64,000 nucleotides of DNA from an uncultured Enterobacteriaceae bacterium (lineage in GTDB: Bacteria > Pseudomonadota > Gammaproteobacteria > Burkholderiales > SG8-39), in contig CAZMGP010000028.1 of NCBI GenBank assembly GCA_964565875.1, forward strand, positions 158 through 64,157. The letters run 5' to 3'. Positions 25,084 to 56,415 of this stretch are shown one piece after another. Under the pieces are notes generated by a model, which saw nothing but the letters and a program-made list of their open reading frames with translations, made no database searches and was not told the origin of the DNA. Made by a program: the position numbers and the translations under genes. Each line of letters opens with the position of its first letter. The stretch's first letter is position 1.

Positions 25084-25348
25084 AGCCGCACTTTCCTTCC
25101 TCGTCCGTCGACGGCGCACCTGTGCATGCCATTACGTGACAAGCTGGGCTAACGCCTACAAGGTTTCACTGTGTGGAACGTCTTCCACTGTATGCAACTC
25201 TATCTTGCCCAATTTTTGCGCCGCTGTCCAGTGCAACCGCAAAATTGTTGCAAATGGGCCGTCTATCTGGCGCTTTAGGACAACATCCGGCTGCATGCCC
25301 TGGTGCCTCGAAGGTGTTGCGACATGACACCAAAGCAAGCGCTGCAGA
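24898..25348. repeat. Copy 2 of the ~450-bp direct repeat, including operators at 25163-25179 and 25182-25198
   Basis: Colinear with 19213-19663. Confidence 0.9.
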
Positions 25349-25716
25349 GAAACCGTGATTCTGGCCTGCCGAATGTAGTACCCAACGCGCGTGGCAACCC
25401 CAGCCGAGCTAATCGGGACGAGCGGCGCCATCGCGCGCAAGAACACTGCGCGATCATTGCTGATCGGATAGCCGTTCTTCAGGTAATCGACAATCGCCGT
25501 GCAGACGACAGTCGACAGCGGATAGGTGGTCGAATTACCAGCCTTGCGCTCCCGGATCCGCAGGCGATCATTACCCCAGTCGATGTCATCAAGCGTAAGC
25601 GCGGCGACTTCGCACCCGCGCAGCCGGTAGGTTGTCGGCAACGGCATGGAGTAGTCCCGCTTCCCGCAGTCGGCACGCCGATAAGTTCCGGATAGCACCT
25701 GTTCAACCGGTCCCAA
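25349..25716 (-). pseudogene. Truncated tyrosine recombinase fragment (RIT-element-like integrase)
   Basis: GKRDY...LRGCEVAALTLDDIDW...RERKAG...YPL...AIVDYLKNG...VFLR; the HxxR and catalytic Tyr region is missing, cut at the repeat boundary. Confidence 0.8.
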
Positions 25717-25976: not shown

Positions 25977-26375
25977 TCATCTCCAGTTCTCAACCTTTAA
26001 TCCACTCACCCGCTTGAACTCACCCACATTTGAAGTGACTACTACCAGCCCCTTTGCCAGACCCGTTCCGGCAATCAGAACATCATATGCCCCGACAGGC
26101 TGTCCCTTTGCTTTGAGCGCAGCGCGAATGCCGGCTGCAGCCAGCGCGTCGGCTTCGTCGAATGGCAGTGTGGCGATAGTTGCAAAGAAGGCGTCAAGGA
26201 CTGGCGCAAGCTTCCTTGCCCGTTCGGCGTTTAGTGCGAGACCGTAATCAATCTCCATGCGCGTAAGCGCTGATACGACTATAAGGGTGGGCGATGTAGA
26301 TTTGACCCGCGCCAGCACATTAGGCTGGCCTTTGACGAAATCGGAAACCGCGCAGGTATCGAGCAGATACTTCAT
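25977..26375 (-). CDS. vapC: VapC PIN-domain toxin
   Basis: YLLDT, EIDYG, LPFD, DVLIAGT, VVTSNVGEF motifs. Confidence 0.92.
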   Translation of the reverse strand: MKYLLDTCAVSDFVKGQPNVLARVKSTSPTLIVVSALTRMEIDYGLALNAERARKLAPVLDAFFATIATLPFDEADALAAAGIRAALKAKGQPVGAYDVLIAGTGLAKGLVVVTSNVGEFKRVSGLKVENWR

Positions 26376-26608
26376 GCCAGCGGATCATCAATTGGCGGCT
26401 TGAGCCTGTCTCGGCTCGATTCAAACAGCGGCATGTCGGCCATACCTTTGAAGGCAAGCACTTCGTCAGGCCACTGCGGTTTGCCATGCCGCCTCAGCCA
26501 ATCGCTCACTGCCTGGCGAACCAGTGCGTTCCGGCTTTCGCCGGCGCGTTTGGCCAATTGGTTGAGCTGCTGACCGGTTTCGTCGTCGAGGTAAATATTG
26601 AAATTCAT
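26372..26608 (-). CDS. Ribbon-helix-helix (CopG-type) antitoxin
   Basis: NFNIYLDDETGQQLNQLAKRAGESRNALVRQAV; ATGA overlap with vapC; GGAGG RBS. Confidence 0.85.
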   Translation of the reverse strand: MNFNIYLDDETGQQLNQLAKRAGESRNALVRQAVSDWLRRHGKPQWPDEVLAFKGMADMPLFESSRDRLKPPIDDPLA

Positions 26609-26622
26609 GGTGGCCGCCTCCA

Positions 26623-26644
26623 TATAACTGCTCAATATGTTATA
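26623..26644. promoter_or_regulatory. Possible TA autoregulatory operator
   Basis: TATAAC-N10-GTTATA inverted repeat just upstream of the antitoxin. Confidence 0.35.
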
Positions 26645-26679: not shown

Positions 26680-26908
26680 GGGAAATATTTCAAAGCCGAT
26701 CCTAAGGAAAACAACAGGATACCGAGTCGAAATCGATCAAAATATTTCCCGACTTCATCTGTTAAGCGATTGTTCCGACAATCTTTCTATGCATTTCTAA
26801 GACGGACTGTTAATCCGCAGGTCCCTGGTTCGAGCCCAGGTCGGGGAGCCAAAATCAACTACTTAGATTCAGCGCGCGAAGCGATTGGGAAATATCGCGG
26901 GTAATATC
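26680..26908 (+). repeat. att module 1: arm sites, IHF sites and tRNA-Asn core
   Basis: GGGAAATATT 26680; inverted AATATTTCCC 26741; core 26801-26851; IHF consensus AATCAACTACTTA 26853; GGGAAATATC 26887; GGGTAATATC 26899. Confidence 0.85.
26801..26851 (+). tRNA. Partial tRNA-Asn(GTT), 3' 51 nt only (att core, not a functional gene)
   Basis: Anticodon arm CGGA-CTGTTAA-TCCG, T-arm CCTGG-TTCGAGC-CCAGG, acceptor 3' strand TCGGGGA-GCCA; D-arm and 5' acceptor strand absent. Confidence 0.9.
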
Positions 26909-27036
26909 TTCGCGACGTCACTGCAGTAACACCCGGTCATTCAGCAAGTTAACCCTAGCAGCTCAGCGGACAACTGATCCGTCGCTCGCATCTGCAAAAA
27001 GAATACAATTTTGAGACGTCGAACGAAGATCTGCAG

Positions 27037-28206
27037 CTAGTTAACGCTGGCTGACGAGGAGATTTCTCGCCGGTCCAATATCTTCCAAAGACCGCGTGCC
27101 TCTAGATAGCTGAGGCAGGCTTCGACCTGCGCGTCCGTGAACGACTCCGGACCGCATACCCCCTTTTGTCGAAATTCGTTGCGGGCGATCAACTGGGCGG
27201 TGAACGAAGCCGGCAATGCCGTCATGCGCCCCTGCGGCAGCGGATCCCAGCCCTGCGGATGCCCCACCGTCATCTCGTTCACCACGCGCCGCCCCTTTTC
27301 TTCGCCGATGACGCGCACGCGCAGGAGATAGAGCGGCTGCACGCCTTCCGGCTTGAGCGAGCCGTCGCCCATCAGCGCGTCGCGCAAAAGCGGCTGAAAT
27401 TTCGTTCGCGCTCCGTTCACCTCGACCGTCAGATCCTGATCCATCAGTCCGAAACCGTAGAGCGCCTTGAGCAGATTCATGATCTTCGGCTGATACGCGC
27501 CGCGCACGCTCACCTTCTTCAATCCCGGCACGAATCGCGGCACGGTCACGGGCTCGGAATGCGGCGTGTAGACGAGTTCGACTTCCTCCTCCAGCCCGGG
27601 AAAACGCGTGCGTATCGCGCCTTCGAACGGAAGCTTAGAGTGGTAGGTGCCGTCCTCGAATACCGTCGCGCGGATATGGTTCCTGAATTGCCTGAGCGCC
27701 GTGTCGAGCAGGCCGAGCGAAGGATTCATCGGACGATGGGTCACATACTCCACTTCGACGACGATTTCACCCGCCGCGTTGCGCGCCCCGTAGCCGGCAA
27801 GCATGTTGGTTATTCCGGGGCTGCATCCCATGCCGATCAGTGCCGTGATTCCTGCAGCTTCGACCGCCGCGGACTTGGCTAGGCGCTCGTTAACGAGCAG
27901 TGTTCCATGCACGTCGAGGTAAGGCACCCGCGCCTTCATTGCGGCATCGAGAATTTCCAGGCTCTTCGAGCCGTCGGTGGTGTTGACGAGGACCGCCGCG
28001 CCTTGTGCGTGGCGCGCGAGCGCCTCCGGGTCAGCGACGTCGAGCGTCAGGTAAGCGACGCGCGACGCGCCCGCAATCCGCGCCGTTTCGGTGAGCGACG
28101 CGGTATTGTTGTCGATGGCCGTCACCTGCGCCCTGGCATCCGCGCCGAGCAGATCCTTGATGAGGCAACGACCGATATTTCCCGCGCCGACGACTACGTA
28201 ATGCAT
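27037..28206 (-). CDS. Saccharopine dehydrogenase-like NAD(P)-dependent oxidoreductase
   Basis: VVVGAGNIG Rossmann motif, VPYLDV, GMGCSPGITNMLA, HSEPVT; ATG 28206 behind GGAGGAG. Confidence 0.85.
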   Translation of the reverse strand: MHYVVVGAGNIGRCLIKDLLGADARAQVTAIDNNTASLTETARIAGASRVAYLTLDVADPEALARHAQGAAVLVNTTDGSKSLEILDAAMKARVPYLDVHGTLLVNERLAKSAAVEAAGITALIGMGCSPGITNMLAGYGARNAAGEIVVEVEYVTHRPMNPSLGLLDTALRQFRNHIRATVFEDGTYHSKLPFEGAIRTRFPGLEEEVELVYTPHSEPVTVPRFVPGLKKVSVRGAYQPKIMNLLKALYGFGLMDQDLTVEVNGARTKFQPLLRDALMGDGSLKPEGVQPLYLLRVRVIGEEKGRRVVNEMTVGHPQGWDPLPQGRMTALPASFTAQLIARNEFRQKGVCGPESFTDAQVEACLSYLEARGLWKILDRREISSSASVN

Positions 28207-28225
28207 CTTCTCCTCCACTGCAGGT

Positions 28226-29905
28226 TTATCGAGAACCGACGCCGTACACGCGTTCCGCCTCGGCGGCATCGATGAGACCGTCGGCGATATCCTCTGCGAC
28301 CGCGTCCGCCGCCCGTGATTTCGGGTCGCCGATTCCGCCTCCGCCTGGCACCAGCAGAACCAGCGCGGAGCCGGGCCGCATTTCGATACGGCTGCCCAGT
28401 TCGATCCGCTTGCCGTCCAGCTCGGCAACCGGTTCCGCGACGTCGCTCCCGCCATGCAGCCCGTACACCGGCACGCCGAAGCGTCCGCCGCGCACGCCGG
28501 CGACGAGCGGCCCATCGATGTCCTCGACCCATTCCGGCAGCCTGATCACGACGCGTTGGCCGAAGCCCCCGCGCTGGCGTCCGGCCCCGGCCGAGCTGGG
28601 CGCGAACATCTTCTCTTCGAACACGATCGGCGCATCGCTCTCGATGATCTCCAGGGGAATCGAGGCGACGTTTGCCGGATACGACAAGCAGGAGATGCCG
28701 TCGCGTCCGCCGCGGGCGCCCAGCCCGCCGTTGAACGTGACCACCGCATAGAAAGTTCGGCCGTCCTTGTAGCGCCCGGTGAAGTTGCCGTACCACAGGG
28801 GGGTCGATCCGCTGCCCGCCAGCACCCGCTCGGGCACGGCCTTGGCCAGTGCCTGCATGATCAGCTCGGGCAGAAAATGCGCGAGCACGGTCCGCCCCCA
28901 GGTCGCCGCCGGGAATACCGCGTTGAGGACGGAAGCGCTCGGCGCATGGACTTGAATCGGCCGCAGGCAGCCTTCGTTGTTTGGCACCCCCGGGTCGAGC
29001 AGGCATTTCAGGGGATACACCGAATACGACCGCGTCATGTTGAGCGAGACGTTGATCGCGCGGGGCACCTGCGGCGAGGATCCTGCGTAGTTGAGAACGA
29101 CGTCTTCGCCGCGGATGGCGAGCTTGAGGGCGAGCGTGATCGGCTGCGCCAAGCCGGTGACGCCCGTGAGGATCATGCTGCTCGCGAATTCCCCGTTAGG
29201 CAGTTCCCGCACCGCCCGCCTCATGCTGCTCTCGGACCTTGAAATGATCTCGTCGCCCAGCCGCTCCAGGCCGTCCAGGCCGGCGTCGTCCATGATCGCG
29301 ACCAGGCGATGTGCCGCGGCGTGCGTCGCCGCCACTTGGGCGCGAATGTCGCCCACCACCTTGTCCGCCTCGCGCACATTGGCGCGGATGAGCTCGAACA
29401 CGGATTCCTCGGCCTTGCCCTCTCGGTACAAAGGAATGATCGGAATCTGCAAGCCTTCTTCGTAGATGTCCCGCCCTTCCAGCGTCGCCAGCCGCCCGCC
29501 CACATTGAGATGATGGACCACGCACAACACGTAGCCGACGAGCGCCGCTCCCCGAAATACCGGCGTCGCGATGGTGATGTCGATCAGATGGCCGCTCGCC
29601 TGCCAGGGATCGTTGGTGATGAAGACGTCACCGGGGCGCGCCTGCGCGAAGCGCGTGTGGCGCAGGAAGTTCGGGATGGTGAACGGGAGGATGCCGAGCA
29701 GGCCGGGGGTCGAATGCGTCGACTGTGCCAGCATGCGCCCGCCGCGGTCGAACACGGCGCAGGCGTAGTCGTGAAAATCGCGGATGACGCTCGAGAACGA
29801 GGTGCGCACCAGGGTCGTCGCGGCCTCGTCGACGGCCGTGATCAGCCGCCGCCAGAGCAGCTCGATCTCGACCGCATTCAAGTTTCGCGGGCTCTTCGGC
29901 GCCAT
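28226..29905 (-). CDS. Hydantoinase B/oxoprolinase subunit
   Basis: RTSFSSVIRDFHDY, PGDVFITNDPW..GHLID, GAGRQRGG, PGGGGIGDP motifs. Confidence 0.93.
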   Translation of the reverse strand: MAPKSPRNLNAVEIELLWRRLITAVDEAATTLVRTSFSSVIRDFHDYACAVFDRGGRMLAQSTHSTPGLLGILPFTIPNFLRHTRFAQARPGDVFITNDPWQASGHLIDITIATPVFRGAALVGYVLCVVHHLNVGGRLATLEGRDIYEEGLQIPIIPLYREGKAEESVFELIRANVREADKVVGDIRAQVAATHAAAHRLVAIMDDAGLDGLERLGDEIISRSESSMRRAVRELPNGEFASSMILTGVTGLAQPITLALKLAIRGEDVVLNYAGSSPQVPRAINVSLNMTRSYSVYPLKCLLDPGVPNNEGCLRPIQVHAPSASVLNAVFPAATWGRTVLAHFLPELIMQALAKAVPERVLAGSGSTPLWYGNFTGRYKDGRTFYAVVTFNGGLGARGGRDGISCLSYPANVASIPLEIIESDAPIVFEEKMFAPSSAGAGRQRGGFGQRVVIRLPEWVEDIDGPLVAGVRGGRFGVPVYGLHGGSDVAEPVAELDGKRIELGSRIEMRPGSALVLLVPGGGGIGDPKSRAADAVAEDIADGLIDAAEAERVYGVGSR

Positions 29906-32002
29906 TTATCGATTCCCCACTTCCACCTGCAGCACACCGAAACGGTCGACCGAAAACGCCCCGCCGGGCCCGACGACCATAGTCGTCTCGCGCTCCTCGA
30001 TCAGGGCGGCCCCCTCGTGGCGGTGCCCCACCTGCAGGCGGTAGCGATCGAATACCGGGCAATCAACCTTTCCCTGGCGTTCGCCGAAGAACACGCTTCT
30101 GCTCCCCTTGCGCGCGTCGAGAACGCTTCCCGCCGCCCGCGGCAATTCCTGCGGCACGTAGGGCCTGGCCGTGGGTATGCGCGCGGTGACGCGCAAGTTG
30201 ACGAGTTCCACGACGACGTCGGCGTACACGCGCCCGTAGCGCTTGACGTATTCGGCCTCGAACGCGCGCTGGATTGCGGCTGCGTCCGTGCCGGACCAGG
30301 CTTGCGGCGCCGGCAGCGCCACGCGGATGTTGTAGCCCTGGCCGCGGTAGCGCATGTCGGCGCTGCGCTGCACGACCAGCGTCACAGGCTGCGTCTGCAG
30401 CAACTGCGCGGCTTCTGCTTCCAACTCGCGAAACCGACGGTCCAGATGCGCCGCGTCGATGCCCGAGACCGGCGCCTTGAACGTCTGCACGCGATCGATG
30501 GCCACATCCGCCACCAGCATGCCGAGCGCCGACATCACGCCGGCCGCCGGCGGCACGAGAATGCGCTCGACGCCCAGCTTCTGCGCCAGCCCGTAGGCGT
30601 GTACCGGCCCTGCGCCCCCGTAGGCAACCATCGTCAGCCGCGTCGCGTCCTCTCCCCGTTCCGCGAGATGCAGGCGCGCCGCGGAGGCCATGTCCTCGTT
30701 GGCGATGTCGTGGATGCCGAACGCGGCGATCTCGCCCGCTATTGCGAGCGGCTGGGCCACCCGCAGGCCTATCGCCTGCAGTGCGGCATTCCGATCGAGG
30801 CGCATGCTGCCGCCGAGGAAATAATCCGGGTTGAGCAGTCCCAAGGCGACGTCCGCGTCGGTGACCGTGGCTTCCGCGCCGCCCAGCGCATAGCTCGCCG
30901 GCCCCGGAGCCGCGCCGGCGCTCTGCGGTCCCACCTTGAGCAGACCCAGGTGATCGATATGGGCAATGCTGCCGCCGCCGGTGCCGATTTCGAGCAGATC
31001 ATACACGGGCACGCTGATCGCGAGCCCCGAACCGCGCTTGAAGTGATGCACCCGCGCCACTTCGTAATCGTCCGCGACCAGCGCCTCGCCGGCGATCACC
31101 GTGCACAGCTTCGCCGTGGTTCCGCCCATGTCGAAGCAGAAGAGGTTCGACGCTTCGCACAGCGCGCCCCACCAACGCGCCGCGGCGACCCCTCCCGCGG
31201 GCCCCGATTCGAGCACCCGGATGGGCACGGATTGCGCCGTCGCGCTCGAGACCACCCCGCCGCTCGACTGCATGATATAGAGCTGGCCCGGAAAGCCACG
31301 TTCGGCGAGCTGCTGCTCGATCCGATCCAGATAGCGCTCGATCAGCGGGCGGACGTAGGCGTTGGCGGCGGTCGTGCTGCTGCGTTCGTACTCCTTGATT
31401 TGAGGCAGGACGTCGCAGGATAAGGACACCGACAGGTCCGATGCGTGCTCTTGCAGGAATTCCCCCACCCGCCTTTCGTTGGCGGGGTTGGCGTAAGAGT
31501 GCAGCAGGCACACCGCCACCGACTGCACCTCGACGGCGCGCATGGCGGCGATGATCTTCTCCAGAGCCCGCTCGTCCGGCGCCGCAATCACTCTGCCGTC
31601 GGCCAGCGTGCGCTCAGCGAGTTCGTAGCGCAGGGCGCGCGGGATTAGCGGCGGCGGGAATTCGAGCTGCAGATCGTAGACGTCATAGCGCAGTTCGTTG
31701 CGCATTTCGATCACGTCCCTGAACCCGCGCGTGGTGATCAGGGCCGTGCGCACCCCTTTGCGTTCGATCAGCGCATTGATGACCAAGGTCGTTCCGTGCA
31801 CCATGGCGCTCGCCTCGTCCAAGCTGACGCCGTGGGCGCGCGCCATGTCCTCCAGCCCGATGCGTATCCCTTGCGCGGGATCGCGGGGCGTGGTCAAAGT
31901 CTTTCCCAGCCGCAGCGCGCCGCTTTGACCGTCGACGGCGACAAGATCGGTGAAGGTGCCGCCGATGTCCGTCCCGATCCTGAAGCGCTTGTTTCCCTTC
32001 AT
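29906..32002 (-). CDS. Hydantoinase A/oxoprolinase ATP-binding subunit
   Basis: DIGGTFTD, HGTTLVINALIERKG, ESGPAGG, DMGGTT, IGTGGGSIA, YGGAGPVH motifs. Confidence 0.94.
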   Translation of the reverse strand: MKGNKRFRIGTDIGGTFTDLVAVDGQSGALRLGKTLTTPRDPAQGIRIGLEDMARAHGVSLDEASAMVHGTTLVINALIERKGVRTALITTRGFRDVIEMRNELRYDVYDLQLEFPPPLIPRALRYELAERTLADGRVIAAPDERALEKIIAAMRAVEVQSVAVCLLHSYANPANERRVGEFLQEHASDLSVSLSCDVLPQIKEYERSSTTAANAYVRPLIERYLDRIEQQLAERGFPGQLYIMQSSGGVVSSATAQSVPIRVLESGPAGGVAAARWWGALCEASNLFCFDMGGTTAKLCTVIAGEALVADDYEVARVHHFKRGSGLAISVPVYDLLEIGTGGGSIAHIDHLGLLKVGPQSAGAAPGPASYALGGAEATVTDADVALGLLNPDYFLGGSMRLDRNAALQAIGLRVAQPLAIAGEIAAFGIHDIANEDMASAARLHLAERGEDATRLTMVAYGGAGPVHAYGLAQKLGVERILVPPAAGVMSALGMLVADVAIDRVQTFKAPVSGIDAAHLDRRFRELEAEAAQLLQTQPVTLVVQRSADMRYRGQGYNIRVALPAPQAWSGTDAAAIQRAFEAEYVKRYGRVYADVVVELVNLRVTARIPTARPYVPQELPRAAGSVLDARKGSRSVFFGERQGKVDCPVFDRYRLQVGHRHEGAALIEERETTMVVGPGGAFSVDRFGVLQVEVGNR

Positions 32003-32008
32003 TTCGCC

Positions 32009-33418
32009 TTACACGCCCTGCAGCACGCACTGCCGCACGATCGCACCTGCATCGTCGAGCGCTTCGAGGCTGCGTATCCGCTCGATCAATGCCTCGCCTC
32101 CGCTCCAGCCGGGCCGCCCATGGCGCGTGCAATCGAGGAATTTCGCCGCAAGCTCGTCGAATGACATCGGATTGTTTGGATGCCCTTTCACGTATTCGAC
32201 TACGCGCTTGGTCTCGCGCCCGCTGCGCTCGACGACTGTCACGATGCCCGGCATCGGGAACTTGCCGCGTCCCTCCGTCTGCGATTCGGTGCGCGCTTCG
32301 ACTTCGACTTTTTGCGTGAGCGCCCGGACCGCCGCATCGTCGAGGCTCGCCGGCGACGCCGCGGCGAAGCCGATGCTGCGATGGACCGCCGCCCAGGCCA
32401 GCATGAACGGCAGGCTAAACTGCGCGTCGGTCACGCTCGCCGGATTCCATTTGCGCTCGTGCGTGGTGCACACGAGGTCGAAGACTTCCTTGTTGGTCAC
32501 GACGACGCGGATGCGCTCGATGTCCTCGATCCGGATGGCGGCCTCCCCGGTCGCCGCGAGCAAGGCGTCGATCGGACCGTGGATGAACTTGCAGCAGGGA
32601 TAGAGCGGCTTGATGCTGACGTCGTTCGCGAGCCAGCGCGAGCCGAGCTCGCGCACCAGGTCGTCCCTGTCGTATTTGCCGCGGTGGAACACGTGGTAAT
32701 AGCCGAAGCGGCCTTCGAGCACGTCGGCCGAGCCGGTCAGATTGCGCTCCGCCATCAGCGCGGCGACGACACCGCCCTGCGCCGCGATCCCTTGCATCAC
32801 GCGTACGGTCATCGCGCCGGTGAGGAAACCCTGCTGGTTGCCGGCGACACAGGCATGCGCAATGCCCAGGGCATGACGCGTCTGCGCCAGGCTCAAACCG
32901 AGCAAGCGCGAGGTCGCAAGGGCCACGCCGTAATACGGACACTGATAAGTCATGGAGCTGCCGGTCTCGCTGAAGCCGATGCGCGGCGCTGCCGACATGC
33001 GGCAGATGATTTCGGAGCCCACGGCGACGGCGGCGACGAGATCGCGACCGCTGATCGGGCCGCGCGCCTGCGCCAGCGCAAGCATGGCCGGGACGGTGCT
33101 CACGTTGACGTGGCAGGTGTTCTGCTCGTGCACGTCGTCCAAGTCCCATGCCCGGGCCGCCGTGGTGTTGACCAGAACGGCAAGCGGCAGCGGCAGCTTC
33201 GCGCCGTTGGTGATCAGCGTGGCCTCGGGCCTGCCACCCCAGTGGCAGGCAAGCGCAGTGAGTTCGGCTACCGCGTCGGCGCGGATGCCCGCGATGGCGG
33301 TGCCGAGCGTGTCGAGCACGGCCATCTTCGTCCGCGCAACGACGTTCTGCGGAAGCCGCTCGTAGCGCATGCCATGACCGAATTCGAGCAATGCCTCCAT
33401 TGCGTCCGGCTTATCCAT
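32009..33418 (-). CDS. MmgE/PrpD family protein
   Basis: AWDLDDVH, KPLYPCCKFIH, AQFSLPF, KGHPNNPMS motifs. Confidence 0.9.
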   Translation of the reverse strand: MDKPDAMEALLEFGHGMRYERLPQNVVARTKMAVLDTLGTAIAGIRADAVAELTALACHWGGRPEATLITNGAKLPLPLAVLVNTTAARAWDLDDVHEQNTCHVNVSTVPAMLALAQARGPISGRDLVAAVAVGSEIICRMSAAPRIGFSETGSSMTYQCPYYGVALATSRLLGLSLAQTRHALGIAHACVAGNQQGFLTGAMTVRVMQGIAAQGGVVAALMAERNLTGSADVLEGRFGYYHVFHRGKYDRDDLVRELGSRWLANDVSIKPLYPCCKFIHGPIDALLAATGEAAIRIEDIERIRVVVTNKEVFDLVCTTHERKWNPASVTDAQFSLPFMLAWAAVHRSIGFAAASPASLDDAAVRALTQKVEVEARTESQTEGRGKFPMPGIVTVVERSGRETKRVVEYVKGHPNNPMSFDELAAKFLDCTRHGRPGWSGGEALIERIRSLEALDDAGAIVRQCVLQGV

Positions 33419-33483
33419 TCTTAGTCCTTCGCTCCAGGCAGATGCCCCAGAAGATCTTCACGGCAGAGCGACGTTCGCTCAAG

Positions 33484-34623
33484 CTAGCGCCCGCGTTCAT
33501 AGCCGGACTTCGCGCGCCGATCGAGCCACCAGCCGTATTGCACCGGCATTGCGCGAAACTCCGGATCCGCTCCCAGATCCTTCGCGGCATGCACTGCCCA
33601 GAAGGGGTCGTAGAGCATCTCGCGTCCAATTGCGACCACATCGGCGCGGCCGCTGGCGACGATCGCCTCCGCTTGTTGCGCATTGACGATCAGACCTACG
33701 GCGATCGTCGGAATGTCTGCTTCTTTGCGGATCGCTTCGGCGAAGGGAACTTGAAAACCGAGCTGGCGGGCGACGTTAGCCGCCGTGGGCGAGCGCACAT
33801 TGATGCCTCCGGAAGAGCAGTCGATCGCGTCAACGGCCCGCTTTTTCAGCTCTCGTGCGAGGGTAATCGAATCCTGCAGGCTCCAGCCGCCTTCGTCCAC
33901 GCAGGACGCGCGAAAGAATAGCGGCTTTCCTGCGGGCCAATAGGTTCGCACCGCTTCGGCAATCTCGAGCGCAAAGCGCATGCGGTTCGCCAAGCTGCCG
34001 CCGTACCGATCCGAGCGGATATTCGACGCCGGCGACAGGAATTCGTGCACGAGATAGCCATGCGCACCGTGGATCTCGAGCACGTCGACGCCTGCCTCGT
34101 CCGCTCGTCGCGCCGCTTGTGCAAATGCGTCGATGACTGTCCGGATGTCCTCTAACGTCATTTCCCGCGGTATCGGCCATCCATCGAGGTACGGCACCGC
34201 GCTCGGTCCGATCACGGGCCAGTGATCCTGCCCTTCGATCTTGATGCTGCGATCGAGCGGTCCAAATCCTTCCCAGGGGCGCTTGGTACCTGCCTTGCGG
34301 CCTGCATGGTTGAGTTGAATTGCGGAGACGGTGCCTTGCTTGCGCAGGAAATCCGTTATCTTGCGTATGGGCGCGATGTGCTCATCCTTCCACAGTCCCA
34401 TGTCACCCACGGTGCCGAGGCCGCGGCGCTCCACCTTGGTCGCCTCCATGGAGACGAGGCCGGCGCCGCCGATCGCGAATTTCGCAAAGTGCGCAAAATG
34501 CCATTCCTGCGCCGAACCATCGACTGCACAATATTGCGCCATGGGCGAGACCATGATGCGGTTGCGCAGCACCACGTCGCGAAACCGTAGCGGCGAGAAC
34601 AGAACCGATTGCTTTGCTGCCAT
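33484..34623 (-). CDS. NADH:flavin oxidoreductase / old yellow enzyme
   Basis: NRIMVSPMAQY, QLNHAGRKA, EIHGAHGYLVHEFLSP motifs. Confidence 0.92.
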   Translation of the reverse strand: MAAKQSVLFSPLRFRDVVLRNRIMVSPMAQYCAVDGSAQEWHFAHFAKFAIGGAGLVSMEATKVERRGLGTVGDMGLWKDEHIAPIRKITDFLRKQGTVSAIQLNHAGRKAGTKRPWEGFGPLDRSIKIEGQDHWPVIGPSAVPYLDGWPIPREMTLEDIRTVIDAFAQAARRADEAGVDVLEIHGAHGYLVHEFLSPASNIRSDRYGGSLANRMRFALEIAEAVRTYWPAGKPLFFRASCVDEGGWSLQDSITLARELKKRAVDAIDCSSGGINVRSPTAANVARQLGFQVPFAEAIRKEADIPTIAVGLIVNAQQAEAIVASGRADVVAIGREMLYDPFWAVHAAKDLGADPEFRAMPVQYGWWLDRRAKSGYERGR

Positions 34624-34650
34624 GGTGTTACACACTCCCCTGCGCTTGCA

Positions 34651-35625
34651 CTATTGCGCCTTGATTCCGGTGTTCTTCAGGAATGTCGTCCACTTGGTGA
34701 ACTCGGAGCGATGAAAGGCGATGAAGGATTCGCGCGAGCCGCCCATGATATCGACGCCCATGCCGTTCAAGCGCTCCACCACCGCCGGCTGTTTGAGTAT
34801 CGCGTCGATTTCGCTGTTCAGCTTCTCCAAGATGTCGGGCGGCGTGCCGGCCGGCGCCCAGATCCCGAACCAGGCGGTCACGTCGAAGCCGGGGTACCCC
34901 TGCTCGGCGATGGTAGGCACGTCGGGCAAGGCAGCCACGCGTTTGGCGCCGCTCGCGCCCAGAGGGCGCAGCTTGCCGCTCTTGATGTAGGGAATAGACG
35001 TCGCCGCCGCGTCGAACACCATGTTCATTTGACCCGCGAGCACATCGATCATTGCCGGCGCCGCGCCCTTGTAGGTTATTTCGGTGATATCGACTTTTGC
35101 CATGTGCTTGAGCAGTTCCGCGCCGAGGTAGGGCGAAGCGCCTATGCCTGTGCTTGCGTAGTTCAGCGACCCCGGTTTCGCGCGCGCGGCGGCGATCAGT
35201 TCTCCCAGCGTTTTGAATGGCGAGGAGGTCGGAACCACCAGGATGTTCGGAACCTGGGCTACCGCTATCACCGGTTCGAAATCCTTCAGCGGGTCGTAGC
35301 CGACATTCTTGTAAAGCACGGTGTTTAGGGTGAACGAACCGGCGTTCGACAGCACCAAGTTATAGCCGTCCGGCGCCGTCTTCGCGACTACCTGCGTCCC
35401 AATCGACCCGCCCATGCCGCCGCGATTGTCGACGACGACCGGTTGGCCGAGTTTTTCCGACAAGCCTTGCGCGATGGTCCTGCCGAGGATGTCGGTCATC
35501 CCCCCCGCGGGAAAGGTGACGACGAGCCGAATGGGCTTATCGGGGTAGGCCGCACTGGCGGAGATGCCCGGGCCGCCGAGGACGATCAGTATCGACGCGA
35601 TTACGCATTGCAGCAGCTGTTTCAT
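34651..35625 (-). CDS. Bug/TctC TTT substrate-binding protein
   Basis: YPDKPIRLVVTFPAGGMTD, APDGY, YDPLKDF, PDVPTIAE motifs. Confidence 0.93.
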   Translation of the reverse strand: MKQLLQCVIASILIVLGGPGISASAAYPDKPIRLVVTFPAGGMTDILGRTIAQGLSEKLGQPVVVDNRGGMGGSIGTQVVAKTAPDGYNLVLSNAGSFTLNTVLYKNVGYDPLKDFEPVIAVAQVPNILVVPTSSPFKTLGELIAAARAKPGSLNYASTGIGASPYLGAELLKHMAKVDITEITYKGAAPAMIDVLAGQMNMVFDAAATSIPYIKSGKLRPLGASGAKRVAALPDVPTIAEQGYPGFDVTAWFGIWAPAGTPPDILEKLNSEIDAILKQPAVVERLNGMGVDIMGGSRESFIAFHRSEFTKWTTFLKNTGIKAQ

Positions 35626-35677
35626 GGCGAATTTCCTCAAGGTTCAGATGCTCGACGCAAATTTGCTCGAATCGCAG

Positions 35678-36658
35678 TTAGAACTGGATCTTGATTCCGG
35701 TAGAACGGATGAACGCCGTCCAGCGCTCGAATTCGGCGCGGTGAAACGCGGCGAAGTTCTCCACCGATCCACCCATGATCTCCGCGCCCAATCCCGTGAA
35801 GCGCGCGTTGACGTCTGGCATCTTCAAGATGAGGTTGATTTCCTCGTTGAGCTTATGAACGATGTCGGGTGGCGTTCCTGACGGCGCCCACAGCGCGTAC
35901 CAGGCGACGACATCGAACCCCGGGTAGCCGCTCTCGGCGATGGTGGGCACGTCCGGCAGCGCCTTCAATCGATGCGGGCTGGTCGTAGCGAGGGCGCGTA
36001 TGGCCCCGGCTTTGATCTGAGGAATGGAAGTGCCGACCGCATCGAATGCCATGGTCACTTCCCCGCTTATGGCGGCCGTGAGGGCGGGCGCGCCGCCCTT
36101 GTACATCACCTCGAGTATGTCGACCTTCGCCATTTTCTTCAGCAGTGTCAGGCTCAGGCTGGGCGAGGCGCCGATTCCTGTGCTGGCGTGGCTGAGCGCG
36201 CCCGGTTTCGCCCGGGCTGCATCGATGATTTCGGAGAGATTTTTGAACGGCGACTTGCTCGATACCACGAGGACATTCGGCACCGCCGCAATCGGAATGA
36301 TTGGCGCAAAGTCCTGCAGCGGGTGGTACGGCAGCTTGTCGACCAATTCCGCGTTCACGGCGTGGGTGCCGAAGGTGCCAAGGACGAGGGTGTAGCCGTC
36401 CGGCGGCGATTTCGCAGCCAGATTGGTACCGATCGTTCCGCCCGCGCCACCGCGATTGTCCAATACCACGGGTTGGCCCAGCTTTTCGGTGAGTTTGACG
36501 CCTATCGTCCGTCCAAGCACGTCGGTCATCCCACCGGGCGGATACGGGATGATGATGCGTATGGGTTTATCGGGGTACGCGGCAGCCGCGGTTGCGCCCA
36601 CGCCGATCAATGCAAGGCCGGCAATAACCGCGGACAGACGTCGAATTAGCTGATGCAT
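35678..36658 (-). CDS. Bug/TctC TTT substrate-binding protein
   Basis: YPDKPIRIIIPYPPGGMTD, PPDGYTL, PDVPTIAE motifs. Confidence 0.93.
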   Translation of the reverse strand: MHQLIRRLSAVIAGLALIGVGATAAAAYPDKPIRIIIPYPPGGMTDVLGRTIGVKLTEKLGQPVVLDNRGGAGGTIGTNLAAKSPPDGYTLVLGTFGTHAVNAELVDKLPYHPLQDFAPIIPIAAVPNVLVVSSKSPFKNLSEIIDAARAKPGALSHASTGIGASPSLSLTLLKKMAKVDILEVMYKGGAPALTAAISGEVTMAFDAVGTSIPQIKAGAIRALATTSPHRLKALPDVPTIAESGYPGFDVVAWYALWAPSGTPPDIVHKLNEEINLILKMPDVNARFTGLGAEIMGGSVENFAAFHRAEFERWTAFIRSTGIKIQF

Positions 36659-36722
36659 TCAGGTACCTCCTCCGAGTTGTTAGTGCGATATCCCCGGCAC
36701 AGACCGCGGCCTCGCAATCAGC

Positions 36723-38363
36723 CTAGTAATGCGGATCGAACATCTGCGCGCGCACGTCGGCGAGCACGTCGGCGGGCTTCGCTTTGCCGGCAAGTCCGCT
36801 CGCGTAGGCGCACTCGGCAACCGCTGCCGCGATATGCGCCGAGACTTCGCGGATGCGCGGCAGCGCCGGGTAGAGGCTGCCCTGCTCGAGATCGGCTTCG
36901 GTGACGAGGTGCGCGAGCGTCTTCGCCGCAGCCATGAACATCTCGTCGGTGATGTGGCGCGTGCGGCTGGCGATCGCTCCCAGGCCCACCCCGGGGAAGA
37001 TGTAGGAGTTGTTCCCCTGCCGCGGCACGAAGGTCTTGCCGCTGTATTTCACCGGATCGAACGGGCTGCCGCAGGCAAATAGCGCGCGGCCCTTGGTCCA
37101 GCGATACGCCTCCTCGGCGTTGCACTCCGCCTTGGAGGTCGGGTTCGAAAGCGCGAACACGATCGGCCGCTCGTTGATCCGCGCCATTTCCTCGAGTACT
37201 TCTTGCGTGAAGGTGCCGCCGACGGCGGCCACGCCGACGATGGCGGTGGGTTTGAGCGCCTTGATCGCGGCGAGGAAATTGGGCACCGGGGCGTGATCGT
37301 GCGCGTAGGGGAGCTTGTGCTCGGCGAGATCGTTGCGGCTTTTCACCACCAGGCCGCGCGAATCGACCGCCCAGCAGCGCCGGCGCGCTTCCGCCTCGGG
37401 CAGCCCCTGCGCCATCATCGCCGACACCACCAGGTCGCAGATGCCGGTGGCGGCTTCGCCCGCGCCGAGGAAGAGGAGTTTCTGATCGCTGAACTTGCCG
37501 CCGGTGATGCGCAGCGCCGAGAACATGCCGGCGAGCGCGACCGCCGCGGTGCCTTGAATGTCGTCGTTGAAGCTGCAGATGCGGTTGCGGTATTTCTTTA
37601 GAAGCCGGAAGGCGTTGTGGTTGGCGAAATCCTCGAACTGGATCACCACGCCCGGGAACACTTCGGTCGCCGCGCTGATGAATTCCTCGATCAGCTCGTC
37701 GTAGGCCGCGCCGGTCAGGCGCCGCTGGCGTAGGCCGACATAGAACTGGTCTTCGAGCATCGCGGCGTTGTTGGTGCCGACATCGATGGTGACCGGCAGC
37801 GCGAGTTGCGGGTGCACGCCCGCGCAGGCGGTATAGAGGGACAATTTCCCCACGGGAATGCCCATGCCGTTCGCGCCCAGATCGCCCAAGCCCAAGATGC
37901 GCTCGCCGTCGGTAACGACGATGATCCCCGCCTGGTAGGGCCAGTTGCGCAGCAGCTGCTTGATGCGGCCGCGGTCGTTCGCGCCGATGAATAGCCCGCG
38001 CGGCCGCTGGAAGATGTGGCCGAATTTCTGGCAGGCAAGCCCCACGGTCGGGGTGTAGACGAGCGGCTGCATTTCATCGATGTTGTCGCACAGCACGCGG
38101 AAGTAGAGCGACTCGTTGCGGTCGTGCAGCGCATTCAGCGCGACGAACTTATCCAGCGGATCGGTCATGCGGCGCAGGCGTGCGAGCACGCGCACCGCCT
38201 GCTCCTCCTGCGTGTGCACATGCGGCGGCAGGAAGCCGCGCAGGTTGTATTTGTCGCGCTCGGCCTCGGTGAAACCGGTGCCGTGGTTCAGAGCGGGATC
38301 GCGCAGTATGTCCTGGCCGGTCTTGAACGACGCGCCCTCACCCACTAGAGTCTTGTCGAGCAT
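36723..38363 (-). CDS. maeA: NAD(P)-dependent malic enzyme, large MaeA/SfcA type
   Basis: VYTPTVGLAC, VVTDGERILGLGDLG, QFEDF, FNDDIQGT, LGAGEA, FALSNPT, QGNNSYIFPG motifs. Confidence 0.93.
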   Translation of the reverse strand: MLDKTLVGEGASFKTGQDILRDPALNHGTGFTEAERDKYNLRGFLPPHVHTQEEQAVRVLARLRRMTDPLDKFVALNALHDRNESLYFRVLCDNIDEMQPLVYTPTVGLACQKFGHIFQRPRGLFIGANDRGRIKQLLRNWPYQAGIIVVTDGERILGLGDLGANGMGIPVGKLSLYTACAGVHPQLALPVTIDVGTNNAAMLEDQFYVGLRQRRLTGAAYDELIEEFISAATEVFPGVVIQFEDFANHNAFRLLKKYRNRICSFNDDIQGTAAVALAGMFSALRITGGKFSDQKLLFLGAGEAATGICDLVVSAMMAQGLPEAEARRRCWAVDSRGLVVKSRNDLAEHKLPYAHDHAPVPNFLAAIKALKPTAIVGVAAVGGTFTQEVLEEMARINERPIVFALSNPTSKAECNAEEAYRWTKGRALFACGSPFDPVKYSGKTFVPRQGNNSYIFPGVGLGAIASRTRHITDEMFMAAAKTLAHLVTEADLEQGSLYPALPRIREVSAHIAAAVAECAYASGLAGKAKPADVLADVRAQMFDPHY

Positions 38364-38393
38364 ACTTGTCTATCCTCGTGAATACGCGCCTTA

Positions 38394-39374
38394 TTACTCG
38401 ACCTTGATCTTGGCTTCGCGGATGAATCGCGACCAGCGCTCGATTTCCGCGTGCTGGTACCGTGCAAGTTCCTCCGAGCTGCTCACAACCAAATCGACCG
38501 CGAGGTCGTCGAGGTGCGCTACGGTGTCCGACTGCGTCGCGGCAGCCGCGATGGTATTGCGGATCTTCGCCACGATTTCCGATGGCGTACCCTTCGGCGC
38601 AAACACGGCATACCAGGTGACGATATTGAATCCTTGCACGCCGTCTTCGATCATCGTCGGTAGATCGGAAGCCGCTTTCGCGCGTGACGTGCCCGTGACC
38701 GCCAAGCCTTTGAGCTTTCCGCTTCTTACGTAGGGCAGCGCGCTCGGCATGTAGTCGAACGTCAGGGACACGTGTCCCGCCATGAGATCGGTGAGAGCCG
38801 GGGCACTGCCGCGATAGGGCACATGAACGATGTCGACCTGTGCGAGCCTGCGAAACATCTCACCGGCGAGATGCGATGCGGTACCCGCGCCCGCAGAGGC
38901 GTAGGTCAATTTGCCGGGATTGGCTTTTGCGTAGCTAATGAGTTCTTTGACGTTGCTAATCGGCAGCGACGGAGTGACTGCGAGCAGGTTGGGCAGCGTG
39001 GCGAGCAGCGTAACCGGCGCGAAGTCCTTTTCCGGGTTGTAGGTGATCTTCTTGTAAAGGCTGGCATTGACTGCATGCGTACCGATCGTTCCAAGAACGA
39101 TGGTGTAGCCGTCAGGCGCCGCGTGCGCGACCAGTTCCGTGCCGATAATGCCGCCGGCTCCGGAGCGGTTTTCCACCACCACCGGCTGGCCCCAGGCTTC
39201 CGACATCTTTTGGGCAAATATGCGCGCAAGGATATCGGTCGTACCCCCTGGCGGAAACGGCACGACGAACTTAACAGTCTGATTTGGATAGCTATCTGCG
39301 AACGCTGCGACTGTCACCACACTCGCCGCCACCGCGACCAAGCAGCGATATGCCCATTTGCTAATGCGCATCAC
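38394..39374 (-). CDS. Bug/TctC TTT substrate-binding protein
   Basis: VVPFPPGGTTD, APDGYT, HVPYRG motifs. Confidence 0.93.
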   Translation of the reverse strand: MMRISKWAYRCLVAVAASVVTVAAFADSYPNQTVKFVVPFPPGGTTDILARIFAQKMSEAWGQPVVVENRSGAGGIIGTELVAHAAPDGYTIVLGTIGTHAVNASLYKKITYNPEKDFAPVTLLATLPNLLAVTPSLPISNVKELISYAKANPGKLTYASAGAGTASHLAGEMFRRLAQVDIVHVPYRGSAPALTDLMAGHVSLTFDYMPSALPYVRSGKLKGLAVTGTSRAKAASDLPTMIEDGVQGFNIVTWYAVFAPKGTPSEIVAKIRNTIAAAATQSDTVAHLDDLAVDLVVSSSEELARYQHAEIERWSRFIREAKIKVE

Positions 39375-39469
39375 GGACCTCCTCCTTAAGATGGCAACTA
39401 CAGCCGCCCTCCCTTGGCGGCTGGATTATTTCTTCGCTACGCGTTAACCCTACGTATTCCATGTACTCT

Positions 39470-39485
39470 AAATGGTATACCATTT
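39470..39485. promoter_or_regulatory. Putative GntR/FadR operator
   Basis: Perfect palindrome AAATGGTATACCATTT in a divergent intergenic region. Confidence 0.75.
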
Positions 39486-39828
39486 GATGTCAATCGCACA
39501 TTTTCCTGTTATGATCAGACACCATCTTGAGCGTTGGATATTATCTAGCGAAGACGCTCCAACTCTCAGCGCTGAAACGCGGCAGCACGGCGAAGGTCTA
39601 TGGCACTAGGGAACGAAATCGTCTTGGAGGCGCAAGAAACCGTTATGAAGAAGGAGCGTCGCCACGCAGCCCCCAGCGACAAACCGAGAAAAATCGCAGG
39701 TACCGCGCCATCTCGCACAGATGGAGCGCGGACAGCGGCAGGTTCCCGCGCACGGAGCCCGATAACAATATGATTGATCTGCGTGCGCTGCCTAGCCGAA
39801 GGTCCAAATTCCAACGAATCCGAGGAGG

Positions 39829-41070
39829 TTGATGATGAAACGAATGAAATTCTCGCTCATAGCCGCAGCGCTTCTCGCCTTCGGCACCTGTCAGGCGGCG
39901 GCGCCAAGCGCCGGCGCGAAGGCCGGAGCCGCGTCCGGCGACGTCGTGAAGATCGCGGTACTGACCGACATGTCGGGGCCCTATTCGGACATCGGTGGCC
40001 CCGGTTCGGTCGAAATGGCGCGCATGGCTGTCGCCGACTTCGGCGGCAAGGTTTTAGGCAAGCCGATCGAAGTCATTTTTGGCGACCACCAAAATAAGGC
40101 AGATGTTTCATCGCAGATGGTGCGCGGGTGGATCGACACCCAAGGCGTCGACATGATCGTCGATGCGAACAATTCCGCCGTCGCCCTCGCCGTGGCGAAG
40201 ATCGTCACGGAAAAGAAGCGCATCTTCATCGCCGGCGGCGTAGGCACGACCCGCCTCACCAATGAAGACTGCAGCCCCTATGTGGTTCAGTACATCTTCG
40301 ACACCTACGCCCTCGGCAACGGCACCGCCCGCGCGATCGTCAAGAACGGCGGAAAGTCCTGGTTCTTCCTCACCGTCGACTACGCCTTCGGGCACGCCTT
40401 GGCCCAGGACGCGGCGAGCGCCGTGCGCGCATCGGGCGGAACCGTGATCGGCGAGGCGCGCCATCCTCTGAACACCTCCGACTTCGCCTCTTATATGCTG
40501 CAAGCGCAGAGTTCCAAGGCGCAGGTCATCGGGCTTGCCAATTCGGGCAACGACACCATCAACGCAATCAAGTCGGCGAACGAATTCGGCCTCACCAAGA
40601 ATCAGACGCTCGCCGGATTGCTGGTATTCAGCACCGACATCCACAGCCTCGGCCTTGGGCTGACCCAGGGCATGTTGATGACCGATGGCTGGTATTGGGA
40701 CTACAACGACGACACACGCAAGCTCGGCCGGCGCTTCTTCGAAAAGATGAAACGCATGCCGACGATGACTCAGGCCGGCGTCTACTCCGCCACCTTGAGC
40801 TACCTAAAGGCAGTGCGTGCAGCGGGAACCGACAACGCCGATGCGGTCATGACCGAATTGAAGAAGATGAAGATCAACGACAGCTTCGCCAAGAACGCCT
40901 ACATCCGCCAGGATGGGCGCATGATGCACGACATGTACCTGATGCAGGTGAAGAAGCCTTCCGAATCGAAGTATCCCTGGGATTACTACCACATCAAGGC
41001 GGTAATTCCGGCGGAGGAGGCGTTCCAGCCGCTTTCTCTGTCTAAGTGTTCGTTGGTCACCAAGAAATAA
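39829..41070 (+). CDS. ABC substrate-binding protein (Leu/Ile/Val-binding family), paralog 1
   Basis: Signal peptide, LTDMSG, DHQNKAD, WFFLTVDYAFG, DGRMMHDMYL motifs. Confidence 0.92.
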   Translation: MMMKRMKFSLIAAALLAFGTCQAAAPSAGAKAGAASGDVVKIAVLTDMSGPYSDIGGPGSVEMARMAVADFGGKVLGKPIEVIFGDHQNKADVSSQMVRGWIDTQGVDMIVDANNSAVALAVAKIVTEKKRIFIAGGVGTTRLTNEDCSPYVVQYIFDTYALGNGTARAIVKNGGKSWFFLTVDYAFGHALAQDAASAVRASGGTVIGEARHPLNTSDFASYMLQAQSSKAQVIGLANSGNDTINAIKSANEFGLTKNQTLAGLLVFSTDIHSLGLGLTQGMLMTDGWYWDYNDDTRKLGRRFFEKMKRMPTMTQAGVYSATLSYLKAVRAAGTDNADAVMTELKKMKINDSFAKNAYIRQDGRMMHDMYLMQVKKPSESKYPWDYYHIKAVIPAEEAFQPLSLSKCSLVTKK

Positions 41071-41077
41071 TTCGCCA

Positions 41078-41106
41078 ATCGGACCGCGGTCGTGCCGCGG
41101 TCCGAT
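41078..41106. terminator. Hairpin between convergent genes
   Basis: ATCGGACCGCGG-TCGTG-CCGCGGTCCGAT, perfect 12-bp stem, no strong U-tract. Confidence 0.55.
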
Positions 41107-41123
41107 CGCAGGCCTGATTTCCT

Positions 41124-41975: not shown

Positions 41976-42071
41976 AAGGTGCCTCGCTCCTTTCGTCTGC
42001 CTTTATGCGTCCGCGGCCCGAAGTGCCGCAGCCGATGAATCATGTTCTGTGCCATGCGCTCGTTACGTCGG

Positions 42072-43112: not shown

Positions 43113-43246
43113 ATTTCGAGCCCTCCTCGAGGCGCCGCATCACGCAGCTCGGCGTCGGCCGATAGACATTTCGCGGCCTGACGCGCTGACGCTAGCGCAT
43201 AGGCCGGTTCGCGACCTGCTTCGCCGGCACGCGTGACGACATAGTA

Positions 43247-43262
43247 CGATGGTATACCATCG
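43247..43262. promoter_or_regulatory. Putative GntR/FadR operator
   Basis: Perfect palindrome CGATGGTATACCATCG in a divergent intergenic region. Confidence 0.75.
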
Positions 43263-43507
43263 ACGGTCAATCGCACGCCAACTTTATATTTCTTGACACC
43301 ATTTTACCGCTTAGATATTGTAAGCATCGTTGCAATGGCTATCTGGCGCACACCTTCCTCCATGCTTAACCGACCCGACTTTCAACTCGGTTTCGTATTG
43401 GAGTTCCCCTCACCGCGCTGGATTCCCGTCGGCCCACGCAAGGTTCGGTTCGCCCACGCGGACACACTTCGATACTCATACATACATTCCATTGGAGGAG
43501 GTTCACC

Positions 43508-44743: not shown

Positions 44744-44755
44744 CTCGTAGGACTG

Positions 44756-44783
44756 CTCCGAGGGCGCCTTGGCGCCCCCGGAG
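44756..44783. terminator. GC-rich hairpin between convergent genes
   Basis: CTCCGAGGGCGCC-TT-GGCGCCCCCGGAG. Confidence 0.45.
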
Positions 44784-44877
44784 GACCGATCGCGATCGCT
44801 TAAGCTGATGGACGAAGGAGCCTGCTCGCGCGAGCCTGGAGTTTTTGAAGTCGGCCTAGCGGCAGCCGGGCTTACTA

Positions 44878-47249: not shown

Positions 47250-47263
47250 GCGCGTTCCCTCCG

Positions 47264-56400: not shown

Positions 56401-56415
56401 GCGCTGAGCAGCCGT

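Follow-up and report, generated by a model that had tools for sequence, protein, structure and literature searches.

In phage lambda, the attachment site attP has five arm-type sites, and direct and inverted repeats that lie on both arms at fixed distances from a core are the hallmark of arm-type sites of the lambda type. Once an island has integrated at a tRNA gene, its P' arm comes directly after the intact gene, and its P arm precedes the displaced gene fragment. Williams reportedly recognised in 2002 an anticodon-loop class of such tRNA-integrating elements, and in the Enterobacteriaceae the islands at asparagine tRNA genes, including the high-pathogenicity island of Yersinia, rely on integrases of the P4 type, and their short repeat is confined to the very 3' terminus of the tRNA. 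In the Islander database, 2083 of 3919 islands are anticodon-centred, an integrase is required for each island, and only 4 arrays of three or more islands are given (PMC4383910); such arrays are rare partly because of that demand for an integrase. Cis-mobilisable elements (CIMEs) and tandem accretion are defined for the integrative and conjugative elements (ICEs) ICESt1/ICESt3 of Streptococcus thermophilus, a CIME being bounded by an att site on either side and devoid of genes for integration or transfer (PMC5704250), and work on Klebsiella describes asparagine tDNAs as island hot spots (PMC4891358). The locus compared with these systems here is a window of 64,000 nucleotides, positions 158-64157 of contig C28 (CAZMGP010000028.1; C-numbers denote contigs of the same assembly, GCA_964565875.1), from an uncultured bacterium placed in the Burkholderiales (SG8-39). 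The window contains two attachment (att) sites, site 1 and site 2 (Table 1), which are best explained as junctions of islands inserted serially into a tRNA-Asn(GTT) gene by a lambda-type tyrosine integrase, a reading given a probability of about 0.75. The original prediction, made from this stretch alone, had described an intasome-like architecture common to the two sites; that observation is confirmed, and its interpretation is supported at the sequence level.

At both sites, a displaced fragment of the tRNA-Asn gene stands between an upstream P arm and a downstream P' arm, and arm-type repeats are found on both arms together with boxes of the kind recognised by integration host factor (IHF), a layout that is consistent with the proposed lambda type. 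Counting from the C of CTGTTAA, and taking site 1, site 2 and two further copies on C90 and C123 in that order, the direct repeat GGGAAAYAT of the P arm lies at -127/-126/-126/-127, its inverted copy ends near -57, and an IHF-like box, TWAGYGMTTGWTC, is located at -44/-44/-43/-44 (in C123 this box reads TAAGTGCTTGATC, with 1 mismatch). On the P' arm, GGGWAATAT is found at +80 and again at +92, and the sequence directly after the CCA, AATCAANNNNTTAG and then GCGATTGGGAAATATCGCGGGWAA, is common to site 1, site 2 and C90. Between the arms, the motif GGA-CTGTTAA-TCC, with its 12-nt core GGACTGTTAATC, is identical in 6/6 copies and, at the sequence level, resembles inverted core-type half-sites around an overlap of 6-8 bp. 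The predicted offsets of the motifs (-121/-120, -60/-60, -38/-38, +2/+2, +36 and +48) were right, when counted from the start of the tRNA-like block or from the end of the CCA. Sites 1 and 2 do show the claimed conservation to the base pair except at the distal arm site, which is 1 bp off, and the other copies vary by 1 bp; the proposed arm consensus GGGWAAYRTY was borne out and can be sharpened to GGGWAATAT(Y).

Table 1. Features of the two att sites and of the adjoining islands, in window coordinates.
Feature	Position	Strand	Remarks
Truncated tyrosine-recombinase fragment, right end of left island	25156..25713	-	1 kb from P arm; PF00589 positions 36-121 only
vapBC-type toxin-antitoxin pair (PIN + RHH)	25977..26632	-	directly left of site 1 P arm; Pfam scan
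Site 1 P arm, distal arm-type site GGGAAATATT, direct	26680..26689	+	same motif at -127/-126 from C of CTGTTAA in 4/4 copies
Site 1 P arm, AAACA block, near -98	26709..26713	+	invariant in 4 copies (alignment columns A38-A42)
Site 1 P arm, inverted arm-type site AATATTTCCC (minus strand reads GGGAAATATT)	26741..26750	-	69-70 bp from distal site in 4/4 copies
Site 1 P arm, IHF-like box TAAGCGATTGTTC, reverse	26763..26775	-	2 mismatches to YAANNNNTTGATW; -44/-44/-43/-44 in 4 copies
Site 1, displaced 3' fragment of tRNA-Asn(GTT), anticodon stem to CCA	26801..26851	+	53-nt exact run in common with intact gene; 5' half absent
Site 1, presumed core GGA-CTGTTAA-TCC	26804-26816	+	C of CTGTTAA at 26807
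Site 1 P' arm, perfect IHF consensus AATCAACTACTTA	26853..26865	+	same place in site 2 and C90; related box after intact tRNA-Asn gene
Site 1 P' arm, two tandem arm-type sites GGGAAATATCGC (26887) and GGGTAATATCTT (26899)	26887..26910	+	motif scans
Site 1, non-coding P' arm extension	26911..26990	+	86-88% identity to C90 and C10 copies
Island of about 35 kb, P' arm left and P arm right, catabolic and transport genes	26853..61749	.	without recombinase
Site 2 P arm, distal arm-type site GGGAAACATC, 1 mismatch	61630..61639	+	within 3' end of acyl-CoA ligase open reading frame 60054-61667
Site 2 P arm, inverted arm-type site AAATCTTCCC, degenerate	61690..61699	-	4-copy alignment
Site 2 P arm, IHF-like box TATGTGCTTGATC	61712..61724	-	motif comparison
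Site 2, displaced 3' tRNA-Asn fragment	61750..61800	+	3 substitutions vs gene, core GGACTGTTAATC unchanged; C of CTGTTAA at 61756
Site 2 P' arm, perfect IHF consensus AATCAATCACTTA	61802..61814	+	motif comparison
Site 2 P' arm, tandem arm-type sites GGGAAATATCGC and GGGTAACGTCGT (second degenerate)	61836..61859	+	second at 61848; likeness to other copies stops here

The tRNA-derived cores were proposed together with an invariant heptamer CTGTTAA, and this invariance stands; what has to be corrected is that both are only 3' fragments of the gene, and neither ARAGORN nor Rfam finds a tRNA in the window. Identity to the gene begins 3-6 nt before CTGTTAA and continues past the CCA, so the core is centred on the anticodon stem-loop, in agreement with the predicted crossover region. 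A fragment flanked by a P arm to the left and by a P' arm to the right would mark a junction of two islands in series. The description of two att sites is upheld as regards a lambda-type motif layout, and is amended in that these are composite P-core-P' junctions and not the two ends of one simple element.

The sole intact tRNA-Asn gene of the genome is on a separate contig (C10:78145-78220, minus strand), and the two fragments in the window are direct repeats on one contig. Further 3' fragments are found on C90 (at 11422) and at two contig ends, the end of C123 and the start of C28, which brings the genome to at least five fragments in addition to the intact gene; the last 55 nt of C123 are the first 55 nt of C28, and these contigs probably abut. 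The series thus goes beyond the two window sites to three further fragments, the intact gene, and a copy without a core that consists of a P' arm with tandem sites (C10:18478-18589). The intact gene is itself flanked by a related IHF box and three arm words, in an order and orientation unlike those of the sites. To the left of site 1, the serial-insertion reading places another island of about 27 kb within the window; its G+C content is 55-61%, compared with 64.3% for the genome, with a step at site 1. Just before the P'-only copy, where P arm and core would be expected, about five repeats containing CCGGAA can be made out by eye (C10 ~18590-18760, minus strand), and these may represent an arm from another element that has taken their place.

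Outside this genome, the tRNA-Asn locus can be followed in the same genus, where the flank upstream of the gene matches C10 at 80-86% in 14 of 15 loci, the fifteenth having too little upstream sequence. The downstream flanks differ among these species and map to C7, C13/C14, C17 and C90, and the locus is therefore a hot spot in the genus. In another genome of the genus (G022, contig C12), an IHF-like box and three GTTCCGCA repeats follow directly after the tRNA-Asn gene, which suggests that a different integrase family uses the same target there.

The motifs are also concentrated at these sites when the whole genome is considered. GGGWAATAT has 45 matches in the 5.1-Mb genome on both strands, 16 of which are within 200 nt of eight att-related anchor points, and all of its clusters (at least two matches within 250 bp) fall at these sites. 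The 12-mer GGGAAATATCGC occurs in 6 copies, where 0.36 would be expected, and 6/6 are at these sites; a pattern for the tandem pair gives 5 matches in its own genome and 0 for the reversed control. The IHF consensus WATCAANNNNTTR is present 48 times genome-wide, and 6 of these come immediately behind the 3' end of a tRNA or behind a tRNA-Asn fragment: it follows the 3' end in 3 of 35 tRNA genes, each with an integrase adjoining or on the contig, and 3 tRNA-Asn fragments besides.

The only plain repeat between the two sites is 26794-26911 with 61743-61860 (118 nt, 82%, spacing 34949 bp). Since this repeat covers only the tRNA piece and the downstream block, the upstream arm is not a plain repeat, and its conservation was assessed in an alignment of the P arms of site 1, site 2, C90 and C123, in which 33 of the 131 columns belong to three motif windows and 98 do not. 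In the motif windows, pairwise identity is 76-88% among all 4 P-arm copies, whereas in the other 98 columns it is 34-46% for all pairs with site 1 or site 2 and 60% for C90 with C123; random genomic 130-mers aligned likewise give 38 +/- 10%. Invariant columns number 38/131, and column shuffles equalled the observed clustering in 286 of 20000 cases (runs of at least 4) and in 898 of 20000 (longest run), which taken alone is modest evidence. The copies on C90 and C123 serve as an independent test of the motif windows because they were not known when the prediction was made.

Conservation confined to the motifs, and its corollary that the sites do not stem from a recent duplication, had both been predicted. 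For the upstream arm, the first of these was reproduced by the two extra copies, and it argues against a recent duplication with uniform decay, so the second is upheld with it. The downstream arm does not follow this pattern: it contains a 24-nt block identical in site 1 and site 2, and beyond it an extension of about 100 non-coding nt that is uniformly 86-88% identical in site 1, C90 (~11530-11600) and the C10 copy (~18478-18560, minus strand). As the P-arm spacers are saturated, yet the tRNA piece of site 2 differs at only 3/51 positions, the arms would have diverged long before the insertions. The selection that preserved the motifs may date from the donor elements, prior to insertion. Within the P' extension, GTCATTCAG.AAGTTAAC and TTCAGCGGA are nearly invariant. 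The extension has stops in all frames, and no promoter or terminator match was found in it; a tblastn search with the 13 recombinases of the genome revealed no integrase remnant downstream of the P' arms. A structured RNA was considered for the extension and set aside, the consensus fold being weak, with a covariation term of -0.32, and there being no Rfam match.

Taken together, these features can be accommodated in a mechanism in which islands would have been integrated one after another at a single tRNA-Asn(GTT) gene. A heterobivalent tyrosine integrase would exchange strands in the anticodon-loop region, its catalytic and core-binding domains acting at GGA-CTGTTAA-TCC and its N-terminal domain binding GGGWAATAT, of which P has a direct and an inverted copy and P' a tandem pair. 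IHF, whose subunits are encoded by the host (ihfA and ihfB, with scores over the NCBIfam cut-offs), would bend the DNA at the boxes beside the core, letting arm and core sites be bridged. Each junction would then read P arm, core, rest of the tRNA and P' arm, the P arm being contributed by the right end of the island to its left and the P' arm by the left end of the island to its right. In this mechanism, the 35-kb segment between the sites would either move only with an integrase acting in trans, in the manner of a CIME, or be a fixed relic.

Several observations weigh against serial insertion by one such integrase, some of which are given further below with the alternatives that they concern. 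The first is that, among the genomes and collections searched, the arms have been seen in this genome only. When site 1 (321 nt) was compared by BLAST with 40 relatives, the tRNA part alone was matched and the arms in 0/40; the flanks of 29 tRNA-Asn loci contained no arm motif except one single site; and a pattern scan of 400 genomes of the order returned 3 chance matches, with no tRNA at any (0/400). A loose scan of a genome contig collection with GGGWAATATNNNGGGWAATAT gave at least 118 stretches, with flanking DNA for 80, and no tRNA-Asn-like sequence among the matches listed, and a 20-nt P' word compared with metagenomes brought up 4 chance matches, 0/4 with arms at tRNA-Asn. A sequence-only profile built from the four P arms (R1), which scores its training copies at 87-98 bits, found 5 matches in 120 relatives at the noise level (E = 0.02-0.1), and the best of them (G011), the one inspected, is without the arm motif. 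All evidence for selection is accordingly drawn from paralogous copies within one draft assembly. Also, no GGGWAATAT site comes after the fragment with which C28 opens (C28:1-260), so the left island would end on the right in a P arm of this family and have a different left end. The truncated recombinase fragment beside site 1 was tried as the cognate enzyme and rejected, having no specific similarity to the integrase on C10 described below or to any other recombinase of the genome.

The strongest alternative, for which the odds are judged to be even, is that the sites are dead relics, scars of old integrations that no integrase uses any longer, in which the conservation of the motifs was brought along from the donor elements. 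It is favoured by the contents of the window, where no complete recombinase was found: there is no serine-recombinase match (PF00239) on C28, the sole PF00589 match is the truncated fragment, and between the sites (26853-61749) no recombinase was detected by a Pfam scan of open reading frames or by six-frame searches with PF00589 and PF00239. At site 2, 3/4 arm sites are mismatched and the tRNA fragment has its 3/51 substitutions relative to the gene, an open reading frame (60054-61667) enters the P arm, and one C10 copy is without P arm and core. At site 1, C90 and C123, on the other side, the arm sites are perfect or near-perfect and the tRNA fragment is exact; the core is unchanged in every copy, and the genome also encodes a full-length lambda-like integrase, the 3' end of whose gene bears the arm motif. 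Site 2 therefore looks worn, and site 1, C90 and C123 look intact. The relic explanation is compatible with an origin by serial insertion, from which it differs only as to present activity.

That integrase is encoded on the contig of the intact tRNA-Asn gene (C10:61992-63077, 362 aa from an MGRYRK start), and it provides the best candidate where the prediction had spoken of an unidentified enzyme, although its link to the sites is circumstantial. PF00589 has 13 matches in the genome, most of which adjoin other tRNA genes; the C10 protein matches PF00589 with E = 8e-15 and phrog_1 with E = 4e-43. Its residues 1-287 are aligned by phmmer with lambda Int (1z1g_A) at E = 4e-4, which is marginal overall, with high posterior support over an N-terminal stretch, MGR..DLPP..Y...LGRD, a region that in lambda Int is the arm-binding domain. 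The stop codon of the gene overlaps GGGTAATAC, and an inverted GGGAAATATCGC is 73 bp off, compared with 69-70 bp in the four P arms. At 52 nt further, GGATCGTGAATCCGC matches the anticodon stem-loop region at 17/24 positions, with nothing beyond. The locus is the best non-training match of R1 in the genome (15.6 bits, E = 0.066), though this match is weak and on the strand opposite to the hand alignment, the arm pair being symmetric; the gene is moreover 15 kb from the tRNA-Asn gene, with no well-kept site beside it. That the C10 integrase is the cognate enzyme is given slightly below an even chance.

Relatives of the C10 integrase at 31-41% identity were found in 21 of 300 other genomes of the order. 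ARAGORN places tRNA genes at 14 of 24 loci, and at 13 of these a tRNA (Lys, Met, Leu, Phe, Ser, Thr, His) has its 3' end turned towards that of the integrase gene; the fourteenth, with tRNAs ~650 nt away, was left out. An exact direct repeat of at least 8 nt is present between tRNA and integrase at 9 of the 13 loci, usually 19-21 bp apart, and the observed repeat length was reached in at most 4 of 200 shuffles at 8 of the 13. The order of a tRNA followed by tandem arm repeats appears to be a family logic common to these relatives and to the sites described here, which differ from them in arm words, in spacing (12 bp, as opposed to 19-21 bp) and in that the relatives have the integrase on the P' side. 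In several unrelated genomes of the order, tandem copies of the word TTCTACAAT, spaced at 20-21 bp, separate a tRNA gene (Met, Leu, Phe) from a related integrase, and this word looks like a conserved arm word of an integrase sub-family.

A far-reaching extension of the serial-insertion reading would be a working cassette platform, in which the lambda-like integrase of the tRNA-proximal island could excise, reshuffle or export any of at least four integrase-less catabolic islands of 27-35 kb, since a full complement of arm, IHF and core sites would be retained by each. This is considered unlikely; if true, whole metabolic modules would be traded in trans, somewhat like integron gene cassettes. 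Also considered unlikely is that GGGWAATAT is bound by an excisionase/directionality factor or an island-encoded regulator, and that the integrase needs the core alone. The differences in repeat word and spacing just described for the relatives would fit such a protein, as would the occurrence of the motif in three arrangements, in P, in P' and in the flank of the intact gene. The GGGWAATAT sites are, however, found on both arms, direct and inverted, at fixed distances from the core; the C10 integrase has its lambda-Int-like N-terminal stretch; and no excisionase or regulator gene consistently adjoins the sites.

An assembly artefact, in which unrelated flanks were joined across the repeated 50-nt tRNA fragment to give a chimeric P-core-P' arrangement, is regarded as very improbable. 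The assembly is a draft of 5.1 Mb in 155 contigs, with a completeness estimate of 93.95% and a contamination estimate of 4.2%. C123 and C28 end inside the repeat, and site 1 and C90 have an exact run of 56 nt in common, so that the pairing of the arms at site 1 rests on the assembler. The stretch is present in public runs X1-X3, which are from one sample labelled mine drainage metagenome that may be the source of the assembly, and contigs of runs X1-X4 break within the tRNA fragment, with none spanning site 1; no excised or rearranged joints were seen among them, but such contigs could not have revealed any. Site 2, in contrast, has exact runs of only 12-16 nt with any other copy and is therefore firmly assembled, and it still has the full P-core-P' layout; the motif layout of each arm is in any case independent of how the arms are paired. 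Least credible is a recent segmental duplication with uniform decay, the motifs being its best-surviving stretches, since against the 82-88% identity of the tRNA fragment and downstream block among copies and the evenly conserved P' extension of three of them stand P-arm spacers at the random level next to well-kept motif windows, two additional copies included, a neutral tRNA fragment at site 2 so little changed that the spacer divergence must predate the insertions, and flanking genes that differ at every copy.

Under the serial-insertion reading, the 35-kb segment resembles an integrase-less, CIME-like element, because both of its att ends are present (P' arm at 26853-26910, P arm and fragment at 61630-61800) and no recombinase was found in it; no integration or transfer genes were seen, and no open reading frame matched a conjugation gene in the Pfam scan, which was made without a separate search aimed at such genes. 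The other genes of the window are catabolic or transport genes, namely CoA-transferases, acyl-CoA dehydrogenases, hydratases, TctC-type receptors, parts of ABC transporters, and regulators. The vapBC-type pair beside site 1 may be an island-stabilising module. At site 2, the acyl-CoA ligase frame 60054-61667 (plus strand) enters the P arm by ~37 nt and covers the distal arm site, so that the C-terminus of the ligase would be encoded by att DNA. Four TctC-family paralogues are distributed across both islands (23731-24702, 34651-35637, 35678-36655 and 38394-39371). A palindrome, ATGGTATACCAT, followed by GTCAATCGCAC, is repeated at 39472-39499, 43249-43276 and 52430-52457; ATGGTATACCAT repeats lie upstream of two duplicated periplasmic binding-protein genes that are 74-78% identical (39829-41067 and 43508-44740), and the ATGGTATACCAT/GTCAATCGCAC repeat is probably the operator of a regulator. 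On C10 (C10:60001-80000), the tRNA-proximal island of 16 kb encodes NADAR, PRTase-CE, an ORC/CDC6-like ATPase, an AAA ATPase and an HTH regulator between tRNA-Asn and the candidate integrase, and these genes look like anti-phage defence cargo.

The kind of site described here is ordinary and of the textbook type, and its value is that of a worked example and an annotation aid, with no new principle involved. It offers an internally replicated recognition map of an integrase read from sequence, comprising GGGWAATAT, its spacings, the IHF boxes, the anticodon-loop core and a named candidate enzyme. It also illustrates how large catabolic blocks could accumulate at one tRNA gene, lose their own integrases and keep usable ends, which bears on the mobilisability of metabolic islands.

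Among the known systems, CIMEs are like the 35-kb segment in that it lies in tandem with other islands at the same target, and differ in that no ICE remnants or conjugation genes were seen here and the host is a Gram-negative environmental bacterium. The anticodon class of Islander has the same displaced 3' tDNA fragment, from the anticodon stem to the 3' end, whereas the islands of the window are without a working integrase and at least five fragments are present in one genome. The lambda attP/Int-IHF complex (1z1g) is alike in its core between arms with arm-type repeats in both orientations, in its IHF boxes by the core, and in that the N-terminus of the candidate integrase aligns with the arm-binding region of lambda Int. 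It differs in that lambda uses an intergenic attB and the target here is a tRNA gene, in the arm word GGGWAATAT and in having 5 arm sites as opposed to 2 + 2; an excisionase gene has not been identified here, and identity to lambda Int is marginal. Finally, as in the asparagine tDNA islands of the Enterobacteriaceae, tRNA-Asn genes receive different islands, while the repeat described here extends from the anticodon stem onwards, and its candidate integrase is of the lambda-like kind.

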